From NCBI GenBank assembly GCA_019650635.1, contig BOXE01000007.1:894-64893 (forward strand): a stretch of 64,000 nt of DNA, read 5' to 3'. The notes beneath the pieces were generated by a model. The model saw only the letters and a program-made list of their open reading frames with translations. It had not been told where the DNA came from and searched no databases. The translations under genes and the position numbers were made by a program. The stretch is from Alphaproteobacteria bacterium. Lineage in GTDB: Bacteria; Pseudomonadota; Alphaproteobacteria; Methylaequorales; Methylaequoraceae. Every line of letters starts with the position of its first letter. Position 1 is the first letter of the stretch. This document shows positions 6,305 to 44,376 of the stretch, one piece after another.

Positions 6305-6333
6305 TTGAAATGTTATATTATAACACTTAATAT
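6305..6333 (+). promoter_or_regulatory. Sigma70-like promoter TTGAAA-N17-TAATAT whose spacer is a Zur box (TGTTATATTATAACA, 6311-6325)
   Basis: Perfect 7-1-7 palindrome matching the Zur consensus GAAATGTTATAnTATAACATTTC; 56 nt upstream of a COG0523 gene, a classic Zur target. Confidence 0.7.
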
Positions 6334-6380
6334 AAAAATCTTTTGATTTTAACTTAATTAAATTTTGTGGAGAATTTATT

Positions 6381-7592
6381 ATGAAAGTTTTAGATAAAAA
6401 ACTTCCAGTCACAGTATTGTCGGGGTTCCTTGGTGCAGGTAAAACAACTCTTTTAAATCACATCCTTAACAATCGACAAGGTCTCAAGGTTGCAGTTATC
6501 GTAAACGATATGAGTGAAGTAAATATTGATGCTAATCTAGTAGAACGTGGAGGTGGTAACTTATCTCAAACTGAAGAGAAACTTGTAGAAATGAGTAATG
6601 GATGTATTTGCTGTACTTTACGTGAAGATCTTTTAATTCAAGTTAGAGAGTTAGCAAATGAAAATAAATTTGATTACCTTCTTATAGAAAGTACTGGTAT
6701 CTCTGAACCTTTGCCAGTAGCAACTACTTTTGACTTTCGTGATGAGGATGGAGCTAGTTTATCTGACGTAGCAAAACTTGATACAATGGTGACTGTTGTG
6801 GATGCTGCAAATCTTATAAAAAATTACAGCTCTACTGATTTTTTAAAAGATAAAGGAGAAAGTCTAGAAGATGATGAACGAACACTTGTTGATCTTCTTG
6901 TCGAACAGATTGAGTTTGCCAATGTTATTCTATTGAATAAAATTGATTTAATATCCTCTGAAGAATTAAAAACTGTTAATGCAATTATAAGTGGACTTAA
7001 CACTGAGGCAAAGGTCTTTGAATGCTCTCATTCGACCGTGAATCTCAAAGAAGTTGTTGGTACTGGATTGTTTGATCTTAAAAAAGCTTACACTCATCCG
7101 TTATGGGCAAAAGAACTTTATAATTTTAAAGATCATGTTCCTGAAACAGAAGAGTATGGTATCACAAGTTTCGTATATTTAGCCCGCGAACCATTTGATC
7201 CGTCAAAAATCTATAATTTCTTCAATCAAGAATGGCCTGGTGTAATGAGATCAAAAGGCTTTTTTTGGATTTCGAGTCGACCTGAATTTATTGGTGAGGT
7301 TTCTCAGGCTGGTGCGTTTGTTCGTCATCAGGGAATTGGAAGATGGTGGACAACTGTACCGAAAGATCGTTGCCAGAAGGACTAATTTTGATGCTTTGAT
7401 CGATAAATATTGGAATAAAGATTATGGTGACCGTCGACAAGAAATAGTTTTTATAGGTTTAAAGTCTGAAATGAGTGAAAAGAATATTCGAGAGAGCTAG
7501 ATGCTTGTCTGATTAAGAACTATCTTGATGATCCCAGTACATATCATAAAGCTCTAGATCCCTTTCCAGCATGGTTTAAAAAAGTAGCTTAA
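6381..7592 (+). CDS. COG0523 / CobW-family metallochaperone GTPase (two frame breaks, about 7290-7385 and about 7495)
   Basis: [13 protein letters not shown]-loop and the GCICCTL CxCC metal motif. The C-terminus continues in other frames ([25 protein letters not shown], then [27 protein letters not shown]). Confidence 0.85.
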
Positions 7593-8357: not shown

Positions 8358-8717
8358 ATGCATAATTTTTTTTTTTTTTATTTATCCTCATGTTCTGTCA
8401 CAGTCAAAGCTGATTCGCTTTATGACCCACTAGAAAAGTATCTTGGAAAGATTGAAGGTAATGGCACTATACACGACTCACTGGGAAGTTATAAAGGAAG
8501 AGTTGAAAGCAATGGAGGTATATATAATTCTTTGGGAAAATACTTAGGAAAAATTGAAACTAATGGGCATTCTTATGATTCACGTGGTGGATATATGGGA
8601 AGAATAGACAGTAATGGTAATATATACGATTCATCAGGGAAGTTTAGAGCCAAGTTAGAAAGAAATGGAATTTTTTATGATTCCCTTGGAAGATATTTAG
8701 GTAGAATAATCAAGTAA
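8358..8717 (+). CDS. Putative lipoprotein made of six tandem 17-residue repeats
   Basis: LSSC lipobox-like N-terminus; repeats [IF]YDSLGxYxG[KR]IExNGx from codon 21 to the end (nt 8418-8714). Confidence 0.55.
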   Translation: MHNFFFFYLSSCSVTVKADSLYDPLEKYLGKIEGNGTIHDSLGSYKGRVESNGGIYNSLGKYLGKIETNGHSYDSRGGYMGRIDSNGNIYDSSGKFRAKLERNGIFYDSLGRYLGRIIK

Positions 8718-19208: not shown

Positions 19209-19829
19209 TCAAATAACATTATTGAAACTTAATAATCGAAATTGTCCACCTTTGTGTTTATTATCCTTTTTTGAAAGCATTTCAAGAACACTATAGCTTT
19301 GATATGTAACTTCCAATCCAATTGCAAAATCAGGTTTAATTTGTAAAGCATGAGATAATATTGCCCTTATTGTACCTGCGTGTGTTATGATCAAAATACT
19401 CTGCCCAGCTTTTACTTTTAATTTTTTGAGCCAAATCTCTACTCTTTTACTCTGTTCTAGAAAACTTTCTCCATTTGGCGGTGAAAATTCAGGAGAAATA
19501 AATGAAAAATTATGTTTGTCTTCATTTTTATTTATAAGTTTCCAAATTTCAGAAATTTTTTTTCCTGACCAATCTCCGAAGCTTTGTTCAACCAGATTGT
19601 TTTCTGTAATGATTTTTGAATACTGTTTATATCTTGATAAAGCTTCTGCTGTTTGAATTGTTCGTTTTAAAGGACTCACATACCAATCACAATTATCTGG
19701 TAAACAAGTTGCCAATTTTTTAATTTTATTATTTTTTATAATTGCATCTGGATTATGTTGTGAAAAAAAACCCGTAATTTGTTTTACAGGTGCATGCCGT
19801 ATTAAAAATAATTTCGATGGTTTAATCAA
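19209..19829 (-). CDS. cobC: Histidine phosphatase family protein, likely alpha-ribazole phosphatase
   Basis: LIRHAPV (RHG-type) and ITHAGTIRA motifs; directly downstream of and overlapping cobS. Confidence 0.65.
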   Translation of the reverse strand: MIKPSKLFLIRHAPVKQITGFFSQHNPDAIIKNNKIKKLATCLPDNCDWYVSPLKRTIQTAEALSRYKQYSKIITENNLVEQSFGDWSGKKISEIWKLINKNEDKHNFSFISPEFSPPNGESFLEQSKRVEIWLKKLKVKAGQSILIITHAGTIRAILSHALQIKPDFAIGLEVTYQSYSVLEMLSKKDNKHKGGQFRLLSFNNVI

Positions 19830-20609
19830 TTTACAACAAGAATTACTATAATATTTCCAAATAAAAACATTATATCTGTTAAGAAAGCGATTGCTCCTAA
19901 TATGTCTCCGTTAATACCTCCTATGGCTTTTTTCGATTTTTTTCCAATTAAAAGTATTGTTAAGGTCATTAAGATTATGCCGAATAATATTCCATAGATA
20001 TCTAACACAAACAATGTAGGTAATATCCAAGTTAAAGTAGCTATAAATAAACACTTATTTGAAATTTTTCCAACTATACTTGCTGTTTTTGCAAACTCTG
20101 AATTATTGAATAAGTTTCTTGCTATCATAATGAGAGTTTGCCAGTAGCAAATCCAATGGAAAAATAGCAACTAATGGATATCCTGACTCAAATAAAGCTA
20201 ATATTATTCCTAGTTTAACCAAAATACCTAATACTAATGACATTACTCCATAGGTTCCAAGGCGACTATCATGAATAATTTTATCAATATTTCTAGGAGA
20301 GCCCCCTGCCCCGAGACCGTCTGCAGTATCTGCTAATCCATCTTCATGAAAAGCACCAGTAAGGAGAACACTGAGTGTGATAGCTATAACACAAGACAAA
20401 AAAACAGGAAGTCCCACTTGAATCAGTATATCCCCAGCACCACCAGATAATATTCCTACTAAAAAACCAACTGATGGAAAAGACCAACTAGCTCTTGTTA
20501 AATCTGGTGCTTTTTTTGAGAAATAGGACCATTTTACTGGTATTCTAGTAAAGAACATAAGTGTTGCAAAAAAATCCATTACATATTTATTTTTAAGAAG
20601 TAAATGCAT
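19826..20609 (-). CDS. cobS: Adenosylcobinamide-GDP ribazoletransferase (cobalamin synthase), frame break about 20103-20170
   Basis: Multi-TM protein with FFTRIP and AFHEDGLADTADG motifs, split across ORFs 20103..20609 and 19826..20170. Confidence 0.8.
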
Positions 20610-20611
20610 AA

Positions 20612-21634
20612 TTAAATTTTTTTACTTATCCCTGCTTCTGAAAACGTCGACATTTTGTTATGAGTGGTCAAAGCTGCTCTTATTATCAAACTTGCTACTA
20701 CTGCTCCGCTTCCCTCACCAAGTCTCATGTTTAAGTCAAGTATAGGTTTTTTTTTAAGATGAGAAATTACTCCTGAATGACCTGGTTCAGAAGATTGGTG
20801 AGAAATTAAACAATGATCCAATATATTCTTTTTAAAAAGAGTTAGAGTAGCAGCAGATACAGTTGTAATAAAACCATCCAATAAAACAGGTATACCTTTG
20901 ACCCTTGCTGCGATTACTGATCCTGCAATTGCTGCCATTTCTCTTCCACCAAATGCCTCTAAAATTTTACCTACAGTTTTAAAATTCTTTCCATGTAACT
21001 TCAATCCACTCTTAATAATAGAAATTTTATGTTTAAGTTTTTGTTTAGAAATGCCCGTACCTAAACCTGTCCATTTTTCAACAGATTCATTAAAAAGTGC
21101 GCATGAAATAGCAGTTGCTGCTGAGGTATTAGATATACCCATTTCTCCCAATATTAACAAATCACAATCTTTTGAAACAGAATCAAATCCTAATTGCATT
21201 GCTTCAATTATCTCGCTTTGTTCCATTGCTTTTTCTTTTGAAAAATCCTTAGTAGGTGTTTCAAGCTTTATTGGAATAACTGATAATTTTACTTTAGCTA
21301 AATTACATAGTTGGTTAATTGCAGCTCCTCCATTTTTAAAGTTAGCAACCATTTGCTTTGTTACTTCTGCAGGATAAGCAGACACTTTTTTATTTGCTAC
21401 ACCATGATTAGCAGCATAAATAATGCATTGAAACTTATCCATTTTAGGTTTTTTTCTTTTTTGCCAACCAGCCATCCAAATAGCAAAATCTTCTAATCGA
21501 CCTAAACTCCCAATTGGTTTTGTAAGTTTATTTTGATGTTTTCTAGCCAAATTAGCATAATATTCATGGAACGATTTAAGTGGGACTTTGCCATTATTAT
21601 TTAGCAAAATTTTAATAATATTATCATTAGACAT
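20612..21634 (-). CDS. cobT: Nicotinate-nucleotide--dimethylbenzimidazole phosphoribosyltransferase
   Basis: LTKPIGSLGRLE, GEMGISNTS and LGEGSG motifs; 340 aa. Confidence 0.9.
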   Translation of the reverse strand: MSNDNIIKILLNNNGKVPLKSFHEYYANLARKHQNKLTKPIGSLGRLEDFAIWMAGWQKRKKPKMDKFQCIIYAANHGVANKKVSAYPAEVTKQMVANFKNGGAAINQLCNLAKVKLSVIPIKLETPTKDFSKEKAMEQSEIIEAMQLGFDSVSKDCDLLILGEMGISNTSAATAISCALFNESVEKWTGLGTGISKQKLKHKISIIKSGLKLHGKNFKTVGKILEAFGGREMAAIAGSVIAARVKGIPVLLDGFITTVSAATLTLFKKNILDHCLISHQSSEPGHSGVISHLKKKPILDLNMRLGEGSGAVVASLIIRAALTTHNKMSTFSEAGISKKI

Positions 21635-22946: not shown

Positions 22947-23330
22947 TTAGTAAAAAATTAAGTCAGCTAAAAAAGCAAAGAAAAAACCTGTGATATAAAC
23001 TACAAACGAAAAAGTCAATATAACTGAATTTGTTGACCTTAATTTCAAACATATTTTAGCTTCTGCTGGGTTTGCTGGACATGAAGAATTATTTCTTTTC
23101 CATGCCATATAATATGATAAAGCCAACATAAAACCTGCTAATATAAAGATATATAATTTATATTTTGATAGAACAACAATCCAGGGGAATATTGATACAA
23201 TGCTAACTAAAGTTGTACCTAATCCAACAGTCACAAGCAGAGCTGGTAAAGCACAACAAACTAGTGTACTTAAACTTGTAAATAAACTTAATATTGGTGC
23301 AAACAATTCTTTATAGAAATTACTTAACAT
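22947..23330 (-). CDS. MerT-like metal transport membrane protein
   Basis: Cys-Cys pair in TM1 (LVCCALPALL), second Cys pair in a loop (SCPANPAEAKIC), three TM, C-terminal FY; same layout as Tn501 MerT as I recall it. Confidence 0.65.
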   Translation of the reverse strand: MLSNFYKELFAPILSLFTSLSTLVCCALPALLVTVGLGTTLVSIVSIFPWIVVLSKYKLYIFILAGFMLALSYYMAWKRNNSSCPANPAEAKICLKLRSTNSVILTFSFVVYITGFFFAFLADLIFY

Positions 23331-23631
23331 TTTTTATCTCTCTGACGTCATAACCCGAATCCTTTATCATTTCAGTGATTTTTTCATAACTTAATTTTTG
23401 ATTTTCTTTAAAATTAATAGTAATCAACATATTTTCTAAATTCACTTTTATTCCTGCAACTGATTTTTGTTTTGAAAATATTTTTTCAATTGAACGAGCA
23501 CAAAAATCACATACAAGTCCATTAACATATACGTACAAAATATCACCATTGTATTGTTCATCCGACAGAATTTTACTGCTGTTAAACATTACAAATTGTA
23601 AAATAAACAAATAAATAATAATTTTTTTCAT
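23320..23631 (-). CDS. Periplasmic heavy-metal-associated (HMA) domain protein, MerP/CopZ-like
   Basis: Signal peptide MKKIIIYLFILQFVMF (preferred start 23631, preceded by AGGAG), then GLVCDFCARSIE CxxC in a ferredoxin-like fold. Confidence 0.7.
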   Translation of the reverse strand: MKKIIIYLFILQFVMFNSSKILSDEQYNGDILYVYVNGLVCDFCARSIEKIFSKQKSVAGIKVNLENMLITINFKENQKLSYEKITEMIKDSGYDVREIKNVK

Positions 23632-23641
23632 TTCTTCTCCT

Positions 23642-24289
23642 CTAAAATCTTTTAATGAAGTTAAACATAAAGTCTTTGTAGTTATTAAGACCAAACTCTG
23701 CTAAATAATCCCCTTTAAAAACTCTTAACATTGGAGTAAATGTCAAGTTTTTACGACTTCCCGGCATATGATTGGCTTGAAGCATTATCCAAGTATGTAA
23801 ATATCCATATTCAGCCAAATAAGGAGCCACTCCAATTCTAAATTGTTGTGAAAAAAATTTATCTATCGAAGATGCATAATTAGCTTGATTTTGATAGCTT
23901 GTAAAAAACCTTCTATCTTCCCAATCAAATAAGATGCCTGTGAAAAGGGATGGTTCAAATTTATTTTCAAAAGCTTCATAATTACTAGTTGCTAAACCTA
24001 TTCCGTTCTTTAAATAAAAATTTGTTTGCGACTTAGGTTTATTTATTCTTTTTATGAGATAATTTAATTGAAGTCCATGAAATTGCCATTCTTTTTCTCT
24101 CCAATATTCTGCTCTATAACCTATTGAATAATCAATTGATGGACTATAATGCAAATGAAAACTATGTTTACTAAAATCATTTGCCTGCATTAATGTCCAG
24201 CCTCCAGGATATGAAATTGGTCTAGCATTTATATCTTTTAAGACAATAAAAGTGCACACTAGAACTATTTTGCATAAAAATATCTTCAT
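23642..24289 (-). CDS. Putative outer-membrane beta-barrel protein
   Basis: Signal peptide, alternating aromatic/hydrophilic strands, C-terminal Phe (..NFIKRF). Confidence 0.45.
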   Translation of the reverse strand: MKIFLCKIVLVCTFIVLKDINARPISYPGGWTLMQANDFSKHSFHLHYSPSIDYSIGYRAEYWREKEWQFHGLQLNYLIKRINKPKSQTNFYLKNGIGLATSNYEAFENKFEPSLFTGILFDWEDRRFFTSYQNQANYASSIDKFFSQQFRIGVAPYLAEYGYLHTWIMLQANHMPGSRKNLTFTPMLRVFKGDYLAEFGLNNYKDFMFNFIKRF

Positions 24290-24352: not shown

Positions 24353-24688
24353 TTAGGAAAAAAGTTTTGGCGGGGGTGGTCTTAGTAAAGGGTTTAGGGA
24401 ATCAAATGTAAACGTTAAGTTATTAAAAAAAGAATTATCGATTTGAGCACCTAAAATATCGTCAACTTGAAATGTATTTATTTGAGTATAATAACACTCA
24501 CAATTAAAGCATACGTCTTCAACATCATTTGATTGAGAATGACATGATTTGTTTGAGTGAACATGATTTGTTTCATTAAGTTGAGAATATTTTTTATCTA
24601 AACAATACGAAATAACTTTAGCTGAGATCGTCAAACTAGACAGACTAAATATTAAAACACTTAAAATAAAAAATTTTGCGCGTCTCAT
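24353..24688 (-). CDS. Small secreted Cys/His-rich protein with a Pro-rich C-terminus
   Basis: Signal peptide; HVHSNKSCHSQSNDVEDVCFNCEC cluster; ends LLRPPPPKLFS. Confidence 0.45.
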   Translation of the reverse strand: MRRAKFFILSVLIFSLSSLTISAKVISYCLDKKYSQLNETNHVHSNKSCHSQSNDVEDVCFNCECYYTQINTFQVDDILGAQIDNSFFNNLTFTFDSLNPLLRPPPPKLFS

Positions 24689-24741: not shown

Positions 24742-24772
24742 TTGACACAGAACAAAGTGTTATAATATAACA
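24742..24772. promoter_or_regulatory. TTGACA hexamer plus Zur box TGTTATAATATAACA (24758-24772) in a divergent promoter region
   Basis: Perfect 7-1-7 palindrome that contains the candidate -10 hexamers; 37 nt before the TonB-receptor ATG and 70 nt before the divergent operon. Confidence 0.75.
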
Positions 24773-24808: not shown

Positions 24809-26773
24809 ATGTATAAAATAGTTACCCTCGTCTTGACCGTATTACTTGTAGCTAATGCAAATGCTGAAAAATTAGAATCTATATTTGTTGCACCAGATGT
24901 ATTTATAACATCTAAAATTAAGCCGAGTACTGAATATGAAAGTGATAGGGGTAATATTTTATATGATTCTCATGAACTAGAAAAAAGCAGACAATACTCT
25001 ATTGGTCAGATGCTCAAAGATTTACCAGGAATTGCTTCACAAGGTCTGGGTAACGCTTCACGTCCAATAATCAGGGGTCTTGGTAATTCGCGAGTTAAAA
25101 TTTTACAAAACAGTTCTTCACTAGGTGATGTTTCCGAATTTGGTGAGGATCATATTGTTGGATATGATCCATTATTAATTGATAAAATAGAAATTATTAA
25201 AGGGCCCGGTACGTTACTTTATGGAAACAATGGTTTTGCTGGAGTTGTAAACATTATAAACCCTTTAATTGCAGTAGATAAGCCTCTTTCTGACGAAAAC
25301 GTCCAATTAGGTTTTGGATACAAGACCTCAGGTGGAGAGTTGGGAACAGCATTAAAACTTGGTAAATCTGTGGACAATTTTACTGTTAGAGGTTCTGGAA
25401 GTTTTGTAAGTGCGGGACCTTACGATTTAGCAAATGTTTCAACTAAGCAAGCAAATTCATCAAAGTTCATGACATCCGGCGGCGTTGGAATAACATACAA
25501 TGATGGTCAGAATCATCTTGGAGTTTCTTTGGACAAACTAGAGGCTGTATATCAAAATCCTGGTCCTGAAGGAGAAGAAAATATGACATCACTTAACCCT
25601 ACAAGAAACACAATAAATTTTGATTCTTCACTGGCATTAGATTATTTAATCTTTGAAAAGTTTAACTTAGAAGGCACTGTCTCTGAATATAATCATGCTG
25701 AAAGAACAGGCGATGGTAACAATCATAATATAACATTTTTCAATGATATATATGAAATAAAAACATCACTGAATCACAAATCTCTGTTCAATCAAAATGA
25801 AGAAGGATTATTCGGTTTTCATTTCATGAATAAAAATCAAGGTGCAACAGGAGCAGAGGAAGGTCATTTAACTCCAACGAAGACAAATAGTTTTGCTTTA
25901 TTTGCTCTCGAAAAATTAAAATTTGATTTATTTGATTTAGATCTTGGTGGTCGAATTGAATCTGTAAATTTGAAAACAACACAGCATGAGAGAGGTTTTT
26001 TTCCTGCTGCATTTTCTTCCACTGCAAAAAGAGAAATCTTACCAAACAATACAGTATTTTTAGGTTTTGACTTTACACAAAGAGCACCGAATGCTGTCGA
26101 ATTATTCGCAGACGGTCCTCACCACGCTCTTGAAAATGTTGAGACAGGTAACTTAAACTTAGAAAAAGAGAGTTCTTACAATGTATCACTTGGATATAAT
26201 TATGATGAAAATCTAAATAAATTAAAAATTGAAGCATATTATAATTATATTAATGATTTTATCGCTGCAGATAGGAACGGTAGAACTCAAAATGTTGAAG
26301 GTGAAGATTTTAATGTTGTTATTCACGATCAATACAATGCATTATTTACAGGAGTAGAATTGAGTGGTCAGTACGGCATAACGAAATTGGATGATTTTGA
26401 TTTCCTTGCTAATTTTGTAGGGGAATTTTTGAAGGGTTACAGAACATCCAATGACAAGGCTATAACTAGAATTCCACAATCAAAAGTAAATGTTGGTTTA
26501 CAACTCATTAATGAGGAATGGGATACTAATCTTAAATATTATCATTATTTTGATAAAGAATTCACAGGTCCCTTTTATACAAGAACAGGTGGTCACTCAA
26601 GATTAGATTTTGATCTCACAAAAGATTTCATGTACTCAGATTTATCTGGCCATGCAATGTTTAGTGTAACCAATCTTCTGAATACAGTTGGTCGTGATCA
26701 TCTTGAGGCAAAAAAGGGTCAAGTTCAATTACCTGGTAGAAGTTTTAATTTTAATTTAAAGCTATTCTATTAA
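24809..26773 (+). CDS. TonB-dependent outer-membrane receptor (ZnuD-like by context)
   Basis: Signal peptide, plug domain (IEIIKGPGTLLYGNNGFAGVVNI), long beta-barrel, C-terminal ..NLKLFY. Confidence 0.9.
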   Translation: MYKIVTLVLTVLLVANANAEKLESIFVAPDVFITSKIKPSTEYESDRGNILYDSHELEKSRQYSIGQMLKDLPGIASQGLGNASRPIIRGLGNSRVKILQNSSSLGDVSEFGEDHIVGYDPLLIDKIEIIKGPGTLLYGNNGFAGVVNIINPLIAVDKPLSDENVQLGFGYKTSGGELGTALKLGKSVDNFTVRGSGSFVSAGPYDLANVSTKQANSSKFMTSGGVGITYNDGQNHLGVSLDKLEAVYQNPGPEGEENMTSLNPTRNTINFDSSLALDYLIFEKFNLEGTVSEYNHAERTGDGNNHNITFFNDIYEIKTSLNHKSLFNQNEEGLFGFHFMNKNQGATGAEEGHLTPTKTNSFALFALEKLKFDLFDLDLGGRIESVNLKTTQHERGFFPAAFSSTAKREILPNNTVFLGFDFTQRAPNAVELFADGPHHALENVETGNLNLEKESSYNVSLGYNYDENLNKLKIEAYYNYINDFIAADRNGRTQNVEGEDFNVVIHDQYNALFTGVELSGQYGITKLDDFDFLANFVGEFLKGYRTSNDKAITRIPQSKVNVGLQLINEEWDTNLKYYHYFDKEFTGPFYTRTGGHSRLDFDLTKDFMYSDLSGHAMFSVTNLLNTVGRDHLEAKKGQVQLPGRSFNFNLKLFY

Positions 26774-26779
26774 TAAAAT

Positions 26780-27145
26780 ATGTTTAAGTATTACTCTTCA
26801 TACACATTGTTATGGATAGGCCTAACACATCTGTTATGCTGTGGTTTGCCTTTGACGTTATCATTTGCTTCATTATCTTCAAATGCATTATTTTTGGACT
26901 CACTCCTTTTAAACTCTGAATTATTAGAAGCTGCTGAACCATATCTCTTTGCAATTACTACGCTTATATTTTTATTAATCATTTCTTTTGAGATCTACAA
27001 TAAAAAAATAAAGTGCCAAGATGATGAATGTGATACTGAACAAGAATGCAGTACGACCAATAAAAAAATTAAGACCAATCTTATTCTCGCAAGTATTCTT
27101 TATACTCTCAATAGTTCAATCTTTTTATCAGAAGTTATCCTCTGA
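26780..27145 (+). CDS. Second MerT-like Cys-Cys membrane protein
   Basis: HLLCCGLPLTL in TM1, Cys-rich loop KCQDDECDTEQEC, three hydrophobic segments. Confidence 0.5.
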   Translation: MFKYYSSYTLLWIGLTHLLCCGLPLTLSFASLSSNALFLDSLLLNSELLEAAEPYLFAITTLIFLLIISFEIYNKKIKCQDDECDTEQECSTTNKKIKTNLILASILYTLNSSIFLSEVIL

Positions 27146-27148
27146 TTT

Positions 27149-27790
27149 ATGATTTTAAATTGCGAAAATATGAAATCCTTAATGGATTTCAAACATAATA
27201 ACCATCAATTAGCGATTTTGAATCGTCAAGTTCCTGAGGATTCCAATCTTTTCTTTAGTGAATTAAACATAACTCCTTTTTCAACTTCAGGTTATGTTTC
27301 ATTAGAGAATAGCTTAAAGGACATTAGCAAGCTTACAGAAGAAAAACTTCCATCAAAAATTAGGAAAAACATATTTTTCGACAATTGGTTAAAAGATATG
27401 AGTGAAATTTGTAAAATGTTTTGTTTATTTCAAGAAAAAGACAAAATAAGTTTTTGGTTGGGATCTGAGAGAGGTTGTAAACGTTTTCATGTTGATATGG
27501 TCCCTTATAGATGTTTAGTAACTTATTCCGGACAAGGTACAGAATTACTCCCTGATAATGCTGCAGACAGGAATGCTTTTATTAGTGGAAAACCAAATGA
27601 AAATATAATTAAAGACAGATCAGCGATAAGATATTTAAATAAATGGGATATCGCAATTTTTCGTGGTGGAAAACATGGAATTTTACATCGAACTCCAGAA
27701 TCAGCATTAAATGATAGATCTTCAATTTTAATGAGGCTTGATGATTCTACTTTTTTAGAGCAAATAGAAAAAATAAACACTGTTAATTAA
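27149..27790 (+). CDS. Hypothetical protein, possibly DUF1826 family
   Basis: FHVD..R.LVTYSGQGTE....FRGGKHGILHRTP pattern; family assignment is from memory and context only. Confidence 0.4.
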   Translation: MILNCENMKSLMDFKHNNHQLAILNRQVPEDSNLFFSELNITPFSTSGYVSLENSLKDISKLTEEKLPSKIRKNIFFDNWLKDMSEICKMFCLFQEKDKISFWLGSERGCKRFHVDMVPYRCLVTYSGQGTELLPDNAADRNAFISGKPNENIIKDRSAIRYLNKWDIAIFRGGKHGILHRTPESALNDRSSILMRLDDSTFLEQIEKINTVN

Positions 27791-41017: not shown

Positions 41018-42340
41018 TTAAACCTTAACTATTGGTATATCACACCAACTTGTAGTATAGCAAGGTGAACGATAATTGGATTTCATCTGCCAAGCTGAAT
41101 TTTGATCTTTTTTGTTGTTTTCTTTGGAAAAAAAATTTTTATCACAATCTGATGATAGTCTTAGTTTACCATATCCAAATCTACCATTAATATCGTCAAT
41201 TAATTTCATTAGTATTGTTTCATTGTTCTTCACTTCCAGATTACATTTACTTTTTATCAACGATTGTTGTATAAATTTTGCATCATGAAATTCGGATAGT
41301 ATAATTCCAACCTTGCTGTAGAAATGATGATTTTTGTATATGCTTTTTAATAAATTTTCTGCAGTTTTCCAAATAACTCTTAAATCAATTGTCGGTTCAA
41401 TCAAAGTGTATGTTTTGCTATTTGCATAAAAATTTTTTTCATACCTAGAGGTTTTTAAGAATACAGTTATAACTCTGCAAAATAAATTATTTACTCTTAC
41501 TTTAGAGGCGGCTTTTTGTGTATAAACGATCAATGCACTTCTTATTGAGTCGTAACTAATCAATTTATTGCCGAATGACCTCGAAACACAAATCGATTTT
41601 TTAATAGGTACAGTGATCTGAATATAATTACATTTTGTACCTCTCAACTCGAGAACAGTTCTTTGTAGTACAACACCTTTCTCTTTTCTAATAAAATTCT
41701 CATCACACTCTTTTAAGTCATGGGCATTATTAATATTATTTTTCTTTAAAAATATTGATAATTTTTTACCGACTCCCCAAATATCCTCAACTTCTGTATT
41801 TTTCAATATATACAATAAATCATCACTTTTATTTACCTCTAAGACATTACTATAATTAAAACTTATGTTCTTATATCGCTTCTTTTTTTTAATTACTCTA
41901 TTAGTTATTTTTGCTAGTGTTTTTGTTTTAGCTATTCCTATACTAACTGGAATTCCAGTCCATTTTAATATTTTATTAGCAAGATCAATACACTTATCTT
42001 CTCTATTTTGGATTTTTTTCAAATTAAAGAATGCCTCGTCTATTGAATAAACTTCAACCTCCGAGAGATCTTCTTTTAAAATATTCATAATTCTATTTGA
42101 AATATCTCCATAGAATGAATAATTGGAAGATCGTACTGTTACTCTATTATTTAATAAGGTACTTCTAATTTTAAAAAATGGTTCTCCCATTTTTATTCCA
42201 ATTTCTTTAGCTTCATCAGAGCGAGAAATAATACAACCATCATTATTTGAAAGAACTACAACAGGTTTTCCAATTAGTCTTGGATTAAATAGTCTTTCGC
42301 AAGACACATAGAAGTTATTGCAATCTAATAAAGCTATCAT
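41018..42340 (-). CDS. umuC: Y-family translesion DNA polymerase, UmuC subunit
   Basis: MIALLDCNNFYVSCERLFNP...VVVLSNNDGC..., SIDEAF; 440 aa. Confidence 0.85.
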   Translation of the reverse strand: MIALLDCNNFYVSCERLFNPRLIGKPVVVLSNNDGCIISRSDEAKEIGIKMGEPFFKIRSTLLNNRVTVRSSNYSFYGDISNRIMNILKEDLSEVEVYSIDEAFFNLKKIQNREDKCIDLANKILKWTGIPVSIGIAKTKTLAKITNRVIKKKKRYKNISFNYSNVLEVNKSDDLLYILKNTEVEDIWGVGKKLSIFLKKNNINNAHDLKECDENFIRKEKGVVLQRTVLELRGTKCNYIQITVPIKKSICVSRSFGNKLISYDSIRSALIVYTQKAASKVRVNNLFCRVITVFLKTSRYEKNFYANSKTYTLIEPTIDLRVIWKTAENLLKSIYKNHHFYSKVGIILSEFHDAKFIQQSLIKSKCNLEVKNNETILMKLIDDINGRFGYGKLRLSSDCDKNFFSKENNKKDQNSAWQMKSNYRSPCYTTSWCDIPIVKV

Positions 42341-42344
42341 AATT

Positions 42345-42749
42345 TTAACTTAAACTGTGTATCACATAAGTAACAACGCCCCATATAACAGTATCTCTGT
42401 TTGAATTTAACTTTATATTTGGATAATTACTATTTTCAGATTTTAAGTAATAGTTTTTTGATTGATCTTTCATCAGCTTTTTTATTACTAACTCTCCATC
42501 TATCGACACTATAACTATTGATTGTCTTTTGGGGTCTAGTGATCTATCTACAATCAATATGTCATTATCAAAGATACCTACATTAATCATAGAGTCACCA
42601 GATACTCTTACAAAGAAAGAAGATTCTTTGTTTTTAATTAAATAACTATTTAAATTTAATTTTTCCTCAACATAATTTTCTGCGGGCGAAGGAAAACCTG
42701 CTGACGCACTAATCAATTTTACTTTGTTTTTCACTAAATTTTTCCTCAT
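42345..42749 (-). CDS. umuD: UmuD (S24 LexA-like self-cleaving peptidase)
   Basis: SAGFPSPAENY cleavage region, SGDSM Ser nucleophile, VIKKL Lys; aligns along its length with E. coli UmuD. Confidence 0.8.
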   Translation of the reverse strand: MRKNLVKNKVKLISASAGFPSPAENYVEEKLNLNSYLIKNKESSFFVRVSGDSMINVGIFDNDILIVDRSLDPKRQSIVIVSIDGELVIKKLMKDQSKNYYLKSENSNYPNIKLNSNRDTVIWGVVTYVIHSLS

Positions 42750-42761
42750 ATTTCATTATAA

Positions 42762-42776
42762 GAACAAAAGTAGAAC
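42762..42776. promoter_or_regulatory. Alphaproteobacterial-type LexA (SOS) box GAAC-N7-GAAC (GTTCTACTTTTGTTC on the umuD strand)
   Basis: Exact direct-repeat tetramers with a 7-nt spacer, 13 nt upstream of the umuD ATG. Confidence 0.7.
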
Positions 42777-42783
42777 TTTCAAG

Positions 42784-44376
42784 TTAATTAATTAAGTCTT
42801 TTATGTATTTTAATGAACAAACCTGAGATATTGGTTTATCCCAACGAATTCTTGAAAATCTAGGAAACCTCAGAGCCACCCCTGATTTGTGTCTTGATGA
42901 ATAATTAATATTGTCAAAGGATACTTCAACTACTAATCCAGGCTTTAAGGATCTAACAGGACCAAATCTTTCAACTGTGTTGTTTCTAACCCAACGATCT
43001 AAACTTTTGAGCTCATCATTTGTATACCCTGAATATGCTTTTCCAACTGGAACAAGTTTAGTAAATTGTTCGTCAATCCAGCAACCAAAAGTAAAGTCTG
43101 AGTAAAATGAAGATCTTTTACCGTGACCACGTTGTGCATACATAATAATGAAATCAACAGAAAAAGGATTTCTTTTCCATTTATACCAACCGTCAACAAC
43201 TCTACCTTTTTTATATAGGCTAGTCTTTTTTTTAATTATCACACCTTCAATATGGTTGTTAAGGGATGTTTCTTTGATATTTTGTAATTGATCCCAACTT
43301 GAAAATTTAATTAAAGATGATGTCGAAATATTACTAAATTTACAAATATTAATAAATCTATTGAGATATTTTTTTCTTTCAATTAAAGATAACGCTCTAC
43401 AATCAACACTAGTATAAAAAAGTATATCATATGCAATAAAATGAATTGGATAATCTTCAATAAGTTTTTTAGAAGGATTTTTCCTACCAATTCTTTTTTG
43501 AAGATGATTGAAAGATAAAACTTTGTTATTTTTTTTTACAACTATTTCTCCATCAACAACAAAATAACCTTTAATAAATGTGTTAATATCACAGAATGAA
43601 TTAGTAATGTCTTCTCCATTCCTTGAAAAAATTTTCCCATCTTCTGAAAATATTATTTGGGCTCGAATACCGTCCCATTTAAATTCTGCAATATAATCAT
43701 CTGTTTTATAACTTTTAAATTCATTAGAATTGTAATTATTTGCTAACATAAAAGAATTAAATAATTTTTTTCTATTGATGTATTTTGGAAGTTCTTTTCC
43801 GTCCAACCATTCAAATAAGTCAGTACATGGTAATTTAAAACCGTGCCAAAACTCTTCTATTTCTGATTTCTCTCTGACACCAGACAATTTTAACGCTTCT
43901 TTAATCAATCCATTTGAAACACCTACTCTTAAACCTCCGGTTAAAATTTTAATTATAGTATATCTTTGATTTTCAGATGACCGATCTAGAAAATATTTAA
44001 GTTTAGTCTTAAGCTTATTTTTGTGATCAAAATTTGAAAAAATTTCCATAAATTCATGAAGATTTATTTTTGTATTCTTTTCATTATTACTTTCCCACAG
44101 CAAGGAGATCGTTTCAGCAAGATCACCTACATAGTCATAGGAAAATCTAAATAAATCTTCATCAGAATTTTCGATGATCAATTCTTTTAATTCTTTGACA
44201 CTTACAAATTTCCTGTCCATTCGATTTGTTAAAATGCAAAAAGCCCAACCTTTGTCTTTAATATTTGATTTGCAAAAAAAATTTTTTAACAAGTCTATTT
44301 TTTTTTTTCTAGATGGACTCAAAATTAAGTCATTCAATAATTCTGCAAAGTCATTCATTCTCGTCTTCGAATCCAA
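42784..44376 (-). CDS. ATP-dependent DNA ligase (ligase-associated DNA damage response module)
   Basis: Adenylation motif I EFKWDGIR; 530 aa; overlaps the upstream MBL nuclease gene. Confidence 0.9.
   Translation of the reverse strand: MDSKTRMNDFAELLNDLILSPSRKKKIDLLKNFFCKSNIKDKGWAFCILTNRMDRKFVSVKELKELIIENSDEDLFRFSYDYVGDLAETISLLWESNNEKNTKINLHEFMEIFSNFDHKNKLKTKLKYFLDRSSENQRYTIIKILTGGLRVGVSNGLIKEALKLSGVREKSEIEEFWHGFKLPCTDLFEWLDGKELPKYINRKKLFNSFMLANNYNSNEFKSYKTDDYIAEFKWDGIRAQIIFSEDGKIFSRNGEDITNSFCDINTFIKGYFVVDGEIVVKKNNKVLSFNHLQKRIGRKNPSKKLIEDYPIHFIAYDILFYTSVDCRALSLIERKKYLNRFINICKFSNISTSSLIKFSSWDQLQNIKETSLNNHIEGVIIKKKTSLYKKGRVVDGWYKWKRNPFSVDFIIMYAQRGHGKRSSFYSDFTFGCWIDEQFTKLVPVGKAYSGYTNDELKSLDRWVRNNTVERFGPVRSLKPGLVVEVSFDNINYSSRHKSGVALRFPRFSRIRWDKPISQVCSLKYIKDLIN

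Follow-up and report, generated by a model that had tools for sequence, protein, structure and literature searches.

The 64,000-nucleotide stretch of contig BOXE01000007.1 analysed here (GenBank assembly GCA_019650635.1, an alphaproteobacterium; contig positions 894 to 64,893), referred to below as the window, carries two overlapping genes whose products resemble the mercury-uptake proteins MerT and MerP. The initial annotation suggested that this pair is a mer uptake module recruited to import a nutrient thiophilic metal. The pair closes a conserved cassette of four genes whose products extend across the cell envelope, in the order p111 (encoding a CopL/CzcI-like Cys/His protein), p215 (an outer-membrane barrel), the HMA gene and the gene for MerT-like 1. 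The four genes of the cassette are the following:

24353..24688, minus strand: p111, a small secreted Cys/His protein with a signal peptide, of a CopL/CzcI-like family
23642..24289, minus strand: p215, an outer-membrane barrel with a signal peptide and the C-terminal sequence NFIKRF
23320..23631, minus strand: HMA protein (MerP/CopZ-like), 103 aa with a signal peptide, matching Pfam HMA at 2.7e-9
22947..23330, minus strand: MerT-like 1, a 127-aa three-helix inner-membrane protein, supported by its open reading frame (ORF) and by family evidence

A conserved four-gene envelope cassette

The HMA gene starts at an ATG at 23631, preceded at 7 nt by AGGAG, and stops at 23320, sharing 11 nt (23320-23330) with the MerT-like 1 gene, as the initial annotation had noted. 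Its product has the MerP-type features of a signal peptide and an HMA fold with CxxC, the site reading GLVCDFCA in the window. Both the signal peptide and the motif G(L/M)VC(D/A)FCA are kept in the family (~80 aligned homologues), in which two subtypes of the site can be distinguished: CDFC, the form of the window, of most loci and of those with a CsoR regulator, and CAFC or CSFC in betaproteobacterial loci and in those with a MerR-type regulator. MerT-like 1 contains LVCCALP in its first hydrophobic helix, a C84-P...C94 loop and FY at the C-terminus, and its predicted topology comprises three helices and a positively charged loop that carries the Cys pair (WKRNNSSCPANPAEAKIC). In an alignment of 39 family members, C25-C26 in helix 1 are invariant, as are C84 and C94 in the cytoplasmic loop that joins helix 2 to helix 3, with the spacing C-x9-C. 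The cysteine pattern and terminal FY that led the initial annotation to call this protein MerT-like are thus borne out by the ORF and by the invariance of the cysteines.

A set of 84 cassette-related loci (labelled L001 onwards), amounting to 1.1 Mb of sequence, was fetched from other genomes. The HMA gene lies 5' of the MerT-like gene in all 84, usually with an overlap of 1-11 nt, and in 78 of them a barrel gene of ~215 aa adjoins the two, 5' of the HMA gene. A p111-type gene (about 110-145 aa) is the first gene in 54 loci. No further neighbour gene recurs: when 266 flanking ORFs were clustered and scanned in bulk against Pfam, they yielded housekeeping genes, without enrichment. The GC content of the cassette (23-35%) is the same as that of its flanks, and this, together with the housekeeping neighbours, indicates that the cassette is not a recent mobile insertion.

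The cassette is widespread. A homologue search with MerT-like 1 retrieved 559 proteins, all annotated as hypothetical and without Pfam domains, and an exhaustive profile search placed the family at 830 clusters at 50% identity. Relatives occur in at least 520 species when one genome per GTDB species is scanned, and the range of the cassette family extends over Alpha-, Beta- and Gammaproteobacteria, Thermodesulfobacteriota, Dadabacteria, Marinamargulisbacteria and one metagenome-assembled genome of Spirochaetia. The window proteins themselves abound in ocean metagenomes, with 580 and 876 member sequences in their 90%-identity clusters. The cassette is common yet unnamed, and three of its four proteins belong to no Pfam or NCBIfam family. 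Literature searches on MerT with Zur, MerT-like proteins, CsoR with MerT, and MerT/MerP without merA yielded no description of it.

The C-terminus of p215 fits the N-x-I-x-R-F signature of outer-membrane barrels, although the protein matches no Pfam or NCBIfam family. An AlphaFold2 model built with database homologues as input has 12 beta-strands and a mean predicted local distance difference test score (pLDDT) of 90.9, and its Foldseek matches are 12-stranded barrels, namely LpxR, the beta-domains of autotransporters and intimin, NanC and KdgM. At one locus (L023) an unrelated barrel of the Phenol_MetA_deg family occupies the position of p215. This exchange of one barrel for another argues that an outer-membrane barrel is an integral part of the system and suggests that it is a required one.

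The first gene, p111, encodes a protein with the conserved pattern C...PCH...CxC...PP. Among 37 homologues scanned, 14 matched the NCBIfam model CopL_fam (NF033807; best E 1.5e-7) and two or three matched CzcI, and a Pfam scan of the same 37 returned no family. CopL is a small Cys/His-rich product linked to the regulation of copAB in Xanthomonas (PMC8073393).

Several details of individual loci may be recorded here. The full order at L023:6687-9697 is a CsoR operator, the HMA-like gene, the Phenol_MetA_deg barrel gene, the MerT-like gene, csoR and an ArsP_1-family permease gene, and the same csoR and ArsP_1 pair follows the cassette at L056. Directly upstream of the cassette in L001 (positions 6340-6520), on a 2.8-Mb metagenomic contig, ~8 tandem copies of a unit of ~21 nt were found (tttataatattttcaacccga and variants), which could be iterated binding sites or another kind of repeat.

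Relation to MerT and MerP

The curated models of the mercury-resistance proteins recognize the window proteins only remotely. MerT-like 1 matched the NCBIfam models MerTP_fusion (E 5.6e-4) and merT_RC607 (E 3.4e-3), the respective scores of 19.6 and 17.7 bits comparing with cut-offs of 180 and 130, and had no Pfam match. A second MerT-like protein, MerT-like 2, encoded in a neighbouring operon at 26780..27145, scored 19.3 bits with MerTP_fusion and likewise had no Pfam match. When 39 homologues of MerT-like 1 were scanned, 14 matched MerTP_fusion, six MerT PRK13751 and 10 Pfam MerT, and no family other than MerT models recurred. The HMA protein reached 20 bits with the MerP model TIGR02052, below its equivalog cut-off of 92.55, the CopZ models giving the highest scores.

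Profile-profile comparisons recovered the relationship more clearly. A small reference alignment of bona fide MerT was rebuilt from annotated plasmid mer operons, the Tn501 MerT sequence proving 100% identical to an annotated MerT. In hhalign, the MerT-like 1 family aligned with this reference at a probability of 90% (E 1.6e-6), the match covering helices 1-2 and the beginning of the loop. Over 100 columns, MerT-like 2 aligned with the MerT-like 1 family at 88% (E 2.8e-6), in agreement with its initial annotation as a second paralogue, and with true MerT weakly, at 46%. Because the remote homology is reproducible while the scores stay below the cut-offs, both paralogues are divergent branches of the MerT superfamily outside the curated MerT family. 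A model of MerT-like 1 (pLDDT 73.6) compared with the PDB returned noise alone (every E > 3), and a PDB sequence search with the MerT-like 1 and barrel profiles gave no match. Some fused or long members of the MerT-like family, P0336 and similar proteins, were set aside as gene-call chimeras by their appearance; they offered no functional hint.

The absence of mercury-resistance genes reported in the initial annotation was upheld over a wider range. A six-frame phmmer search of the 64-kb window, with MerA and two MerR queries taken from annotated plasmids and with further queries that included MerB and Zur, found no homologue of MerA, MerR, MerB, Zur or CsoR; the sole protein matched was the HMA protein, which the MerP query hit at 2.4e-5. 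The six window ORFs of 440-534 aa encode transporters, regulators or DNA enzymes, none of them a disulfide oxidoreductase, and neither MerA nor MerB was found within 8 kb in any of the 84 related loci.

Compared with the mer operons of Tn501 and Tn21, the window thus shares a periplasmic signal-peptide HMA protein with CxxC, a three-helix protein of ~120 aa whose helix 1 has two adjacent cysteines and whose cytoplasmic loop has a second Cys pair, and the adjacency and translational coupling of the two genes. It differs from them in gene order (HMA then MerT-like, whereas merT precedes merP in mer operons), in the spacing of the loop cysteines (C-x9-C instead of the C-x5-C of MerT) and in helix 1 (CCALP instead of CCxGP). 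The cassette has barrel and CopL-like genes in addition, merR, merA and merB were not found with it in the window, and it is chromosomal, among housekeeping genes. The view of the initial annotation that the pair is not a canonical mer element therefore agrees with the scores, which lie far below the family cut-offs, and with the GC content, which gives no sign of a mobile context.

Metal sensors beside the cassette

Although the window cassette has no dedicated regulator gene, some cassettes in other genomes do. A CsoR-family gene (Pfam PF02583) directly adjoins the cassette in nine loci from at least four lineages, namely Caulobacterales/Hellea, Luminiphilus, Sphingomonadales and other Alphaproteobacteria. 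All nine proteins keep the C-H-C residues that align with C45, H70 and C74 of Bacillus subtilis CsoR; RcnR has His at the last of these three positions. Within the CsoR family, the Cys-His-Cys fingerprint marks Cu(I) sensors. Inverted repeats of the CsoR operator type, TACCC-N4-6-GGGTA, were detected in eight of the nine loci, where they directly precede the leading gene of the operon, be it p215, the HMA gene (L023) or csoR; no such operator was found in L034. The pattern has 27 matches in the 1.1 Mb of fetched loci. With the copZA type of CsoR-controlled copper operon these nine loci share the adjacent C-H-C CsoR and the TACCC...GGGTA operator, but the cassette genes include neither a P-type ATPase nor a cytoplasmic CopZ.

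Two further loci, L052 and L065, have an adjacent MerR-family regulator with Cys at the position of MerR Cys79 and a C-x10-C tail. Their promoters have a 19-bp spacer filled by a palindrome (TTGACCTTGGAGTATACTCCAAGGTTTAAG), and these features fit the class of sensors for divalent soft metals (Hg, Cd, Pb, Zn). In L052 the cassette stands amid RND, CDF and ars genes.

The regulator genes and the CopL-like gene were never found together. An adjacent CsoR or MerR gene was present in none of the 54 loci with p111 and in 10 of 18 loci without it (ten testable regulator loci; Fisher P = 8e-8, without phylogenetic correction). A generic palindrome scan upstream of p111 revealed no shared operator for p111-type cassettes; the CsoR sites did surface in it.

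The association with both CsoR and MerR-type sensors argues that the module is expressed under soft-metal excess, and copper is most likely the metal of the CDFC subtype, to which the window belongs.

At the two loci with MerR-type regulators, which come from unrelated alphaproteobacterial metagenome-assembled genomes (L052:6575-7660 and L065:6630-7700), the regulator ORF runs in frame, uninterrupted by a stop codon, into the signal peptide and barrel of the p215 homologue. An internal Met precedes the p215 signal peptide in L065 and not in L052, and the joined ORF could be a true read-through fusion or contain an internal start. A gene of the Fur/Zur family within 1-3 kb of the cassette was considered as a further regulator candidate in three loci and dismissed as near the chance expectation.

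The Zur box and the divergent receptor operon

Upstream of the cassette, across a 120-bp intergenic region, lies an operon on the opposite strand. The features of this region and the related site elsewhere in the window are these:

24758..24772, no strand: Zur box TGTTATAATATAACA, a palindrome in the 120-bp intergenic region between the cassette and the plus-strand operon
24809..26773, plus strand: ZnuD-like TonB-dependent outer-membrane receptor (Pfam Plug and TonB barrel)
26780..27145, plus strand: MerT-like 2, with HLLCCGLP and KCQDDECDTEQEC, between the receptor and DUF1826 genes
27149..27790, plus strand: DUF1826 protein (Pfam DUF1826, 5.6e-24), the last gene of the Zur operon
6311..6325, no strand: second exact copy of the Zur box; a COG0523 (CobW-family) gene (6381-7385) follows 56 nt downstream

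The Zur motif (TGTTATAWTATAACA) matches the window exactly twice, where shuffled sequences lead one to expect 0, and the palindrome at 24758-24772 is, as initially annotated, the nearest regulatory site to the pair. Given that the other exact box precedes the COG0523 gene, a classic Zur target whose product is a probable zinc metallochaperone GTPase, the motif can be taken as the Zur operator of this organism. The box beside the cassette overlaps an extended -10 element (TGnTATAAT) on the plus strand and lies 37 nt upstream of the receptor ATG. As it is palindromic, it also contains a -10-like TATATT for the minus strand.

The best NCBIfam model for the receptor is ZnuD (NF038289; 9.4e-65, 219.5 bits against a cut-off of 950). 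The genes behind it are tightly packed, MerT-like 2 starting 7 nt past the receptor stop and the DUF1826 gene 4 nt past MerT-like 2. Zur regulates DUF1826 genes in Francisella (PMC5786701), and such genes are among the Zur targets predicted for gamma- and beta-proteobacteria (PMC2770081). The operon resembles known Zur regulons of ZnuD receptor, COG0523 and DUF1826 genes in its palindromic box over the -10 element, its ZnuD-like receptor and its DUF1826 and COG0523 targets, and in having a FUR-family (Zur-like) gene adjacent in one related locus, L087. It departs from them in the low score of the receptor (219 versus 950 bits) and in the MerT-like membrane protein inside the operon, of which we found no description in the literature searched.

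In related genomes the box follows this operon. In L085 and L086 the cassette is divergent from it and 640 bp away, with the Zur box at the receptor promoter, ~585 bp from the cassette. In L087, which lacks the cassette, the operon is flanked by a one-mismatch Zur box, the FUR-family regulator gene and a COG0523 gene. In L046, a single-cell genome, the Zur box fronts DUF1826 alone, at the 3' end of the cassette. No Zur box was found upstream of the cassette in ~75 other loci, the AT-rich marine relatives L008 and L016 included. Since the box accompanies the receptor, MerT-like 2 and DUF1826 genes, together or in part, in L085-L087 and L046, it is a property of that unit. The 120-bp spacing in the window, which is kept in relatives of 95-99% identity, means that Zur may also repress the cassette there, and we judge the chances for and against such control in the window genome to be roughly even.

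MerT-like 2 occupies the place between the same receptor and DUF1826 in L085, L086 and L087 and has 21 detectable homologues. Its helix 1 reads H17-x2-C20-C21-x2-P24, with His17, Cys20-Cys21 and Pro24 invariant in the family, and its cytoplasmic loop is acidic and, in the window copy, rich in cysteines that are not invariant across the family. A His beside the CC pair and an acidic loop would suit a harder ion, such as Zn(II). The invariant His, the acidic loop and the operon context suggest that MerT-like 2 carries Zn(II) across the inner membrane after uptake by the receptor, perhaps passing it to the DUF1826 or COG0523 protein. The initial proposal that a mer-type module was recruited for a nutrient metal consequently fits MerT-like 2, packed inside a Zur-controlled operon, better than the flagged pair, whose regulators elsewhere are of the CsoR and MerR type and beside which the Zur box follows the receptor operon. 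MerT-like 2 is a candidate for the inner-membrane step of zinc import after TonB-dependent uptake in small marine genomes.

Further features of these loci are given for completeness. The 640-bp spacer between cassette and receptor contains, at L085:4605-4682, a pqqA-like mini-ORF (MAWTKPMISEISVGLEINSYACAEK), after which come a hairpin and a T-run. L085/L086 and L087 have in common, some 3-6 kb downstream of DUF1826, genes for an ABC ATPase, an FtsX-like permease and a DUF3299 protein, which may encode another zinc-related transporter. In L046:1920-3708 the Zur box, next to the 3' end of the cassette, has the DUF1826 gene on one side and a cobT-like gene on the other, and cobT/cobS/cobC-like genes (19209-21634) are also close to the cassette in the window.

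Proposed function of the cassette

We favour, with moderate confidence, the view that the cassette is a merA-independent branch of the MerT/MerP superfamily devoted to soft-metal homeostasis, most likely of Cu(I), and that it serves neither mercury resistance nor, primarily, zinc scavenging. Sensors of the CsoR and MerR types switch genes on at metal excess, which argues for a response to excess rather than for scavenging of a nutrient. By analogy with MerP and MerT, a soft metal would pass by thiol ligand exchange from the CDFC site of the periplasmic HMA protein to Cys25-Cys26 in helix 1 of MerT-like 1, and from there to Cys84/Cys94 in the cytoplasmic loop. The 12-stranded barrel would provide the path across the outer membrane, and the CopL-like protein might bind or sense the metal in the periplasm. 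Gene content, conservation, remote homology and the links to regulators and operators are observed, while the metal, the direction in which it moves and any co-regulation are inferred.

In layout the cassette resembles the Cop and Pco systems, copLAB of Xanthomonas and the PcoB-PcoC-PcoD and CopB-CopC-CopD sets. Like the cassette, they combine an outer-membrane protein, a periplasmic chaperone and an inner-membrane importer (CopC/CopD) in a metal-stress operon, and a CopL-like Cys/His protein is encoded by the first gene. The parts themselves differ: the cassette has no multicopper oxidase, p215 and CopB/PcoB show no similarity in sequence, an HMA protein takes the chaperone role of CopC, and the membrane protein belongs to the MerT superfamily instead of being CopD.

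Several observations weigh against soft-metal homeostasis centred on Cu(I). An adjacent regulator was found in just 11 of ~80 loci, and the window has neither a csoR gene in the phmmer search nor a CsoR-type operator anywhere. The p111 protein of the window itself gave no match to the CopL model at E <= 0.05. The MerR-type regulators are of the three-Cys divalent-metal class and not of the CueR type, so the metal may differ between cassette subtypes, and Zn, Cd or Pb would likewise be suited by the Asp residues next to the Cys ligands (CDFC; C-P-x-D-P). It is counter-intuitive for a cell to take up a toxic metal that is already in excess, and the known precedents are confined to mer and to CopC/CopD of the cop/pco operons. 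The position of the Zur box, 70-84 nt upstream of the p111 start and overlapping a promoter-like site of the minus strand, has to be set against this function as well, as does the proximity of the cassette to Zur-regulon genes in three related lineages, which could be functional instead of inherited gene order. Finally, our literature search returned no study of any cassette protein so far.

The same position of a perfect Zur box is the main argument for the alternative that the cassette carries out Zur-repressed import of nutrient zinc or another thiophilic metal, which would enter through the barrel, be carried by the HMA protein and cross the inner membrane through MerT-like 1. The window offers no other recognisable operator, the conserved 120-bp arrangement and the neighbouring Zur-regulon genes (in the window, L085/L086 and L046) point the same way, and Asp residues flank the Cys ligands. 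We nevertheless consider this alternative unlikely, as the -10-like element on the minus strand follows automatically from the palindrome, and the box is separated from the cassette by ~585 bp, with a small gene and a hairpin in between, in L085/L086, where it sits at the receptor promoter. It fronts DUF1826 and not the cassette in L046, the Zur operon persists without the cassette in L087, boxes are missing upstream of the cassette in ~75 other loci, and the dedicated regulators found elsewhere (CsoR, MerR-type) are sensors of excess. Induction by these sensors would fit detoxification by an outward or redox relay, in which MerT-like 1 passes Cu(I) outward to the HMA protein and the barrel, or passes out reducing equivalents that maintain periplasmic cysteines in the reduced state. 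The barrel and the CopL/CzcI-like protein do recall exit parts of cop, pco and czc systems, and the cassette has no cytoplasmic sink such as MerA. The cassette also lacks an energy-coupling component, however, no thioredoxin-like partner recurs among its neighbours and, to our knowledge, every studied MerT-superfamily protein imports its metal; such a relay seems somewhat less probable again than Zur-repressed import. A cryptic or remnant mercury-uptake module serving a merA elsewhere in the genome is very improbable. MerT and MerP are the nearest named families and three-Cys MerR-like regulators stand at two loci, but merA and merB are absent from the window and from the 8 kb around the cassette in 84 loci, the MerT and MerP cut-offs are missed by a wide margin, the cassette lies among housekeeping genes and shares the GC content of its flanks, a tblastn search of p215 against a plasmid collection gave no match, and the barrel and CopL-like genes are foreign to mer operons.

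Should the mechanism proposed for soft-metal homeostasis hold, a relay of cysteines from an outer-membrane barrel to the cytoplasm would represent a new envelope route for copper-class metals and would illustrate how a single transport module comes under the control of different metal sensors. A broader and more tentative proposal is that members of the MerT superfamily are general inner-membrane metal carriers rather than specialists for mercury, among which MerT-like 2 would be the missing zinc importer acting with a ZnuD-type receptor in streamlined marine Alphaproteobacteria, and the cassette a hitherto unrecognised thiol-relay route across the envelope, wired in different lineages to CsoR, MerR-type, CopL-like or Zur control.

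Elsewhere in the window, where an Rfam scan returned no match, two other regions deserve mention. A gene for a Y-family polymerase (UmuC-like) with a small upstream ORF lies beside an ATP-dependent DNA ligase gene at 41018-44376, and the group may be a damage-response cluster. The other, at 8358-8717, encodes a protein of 119 aa with a match to the '5-fold beta-flower' family (Bflower_2, 6.6e-16).

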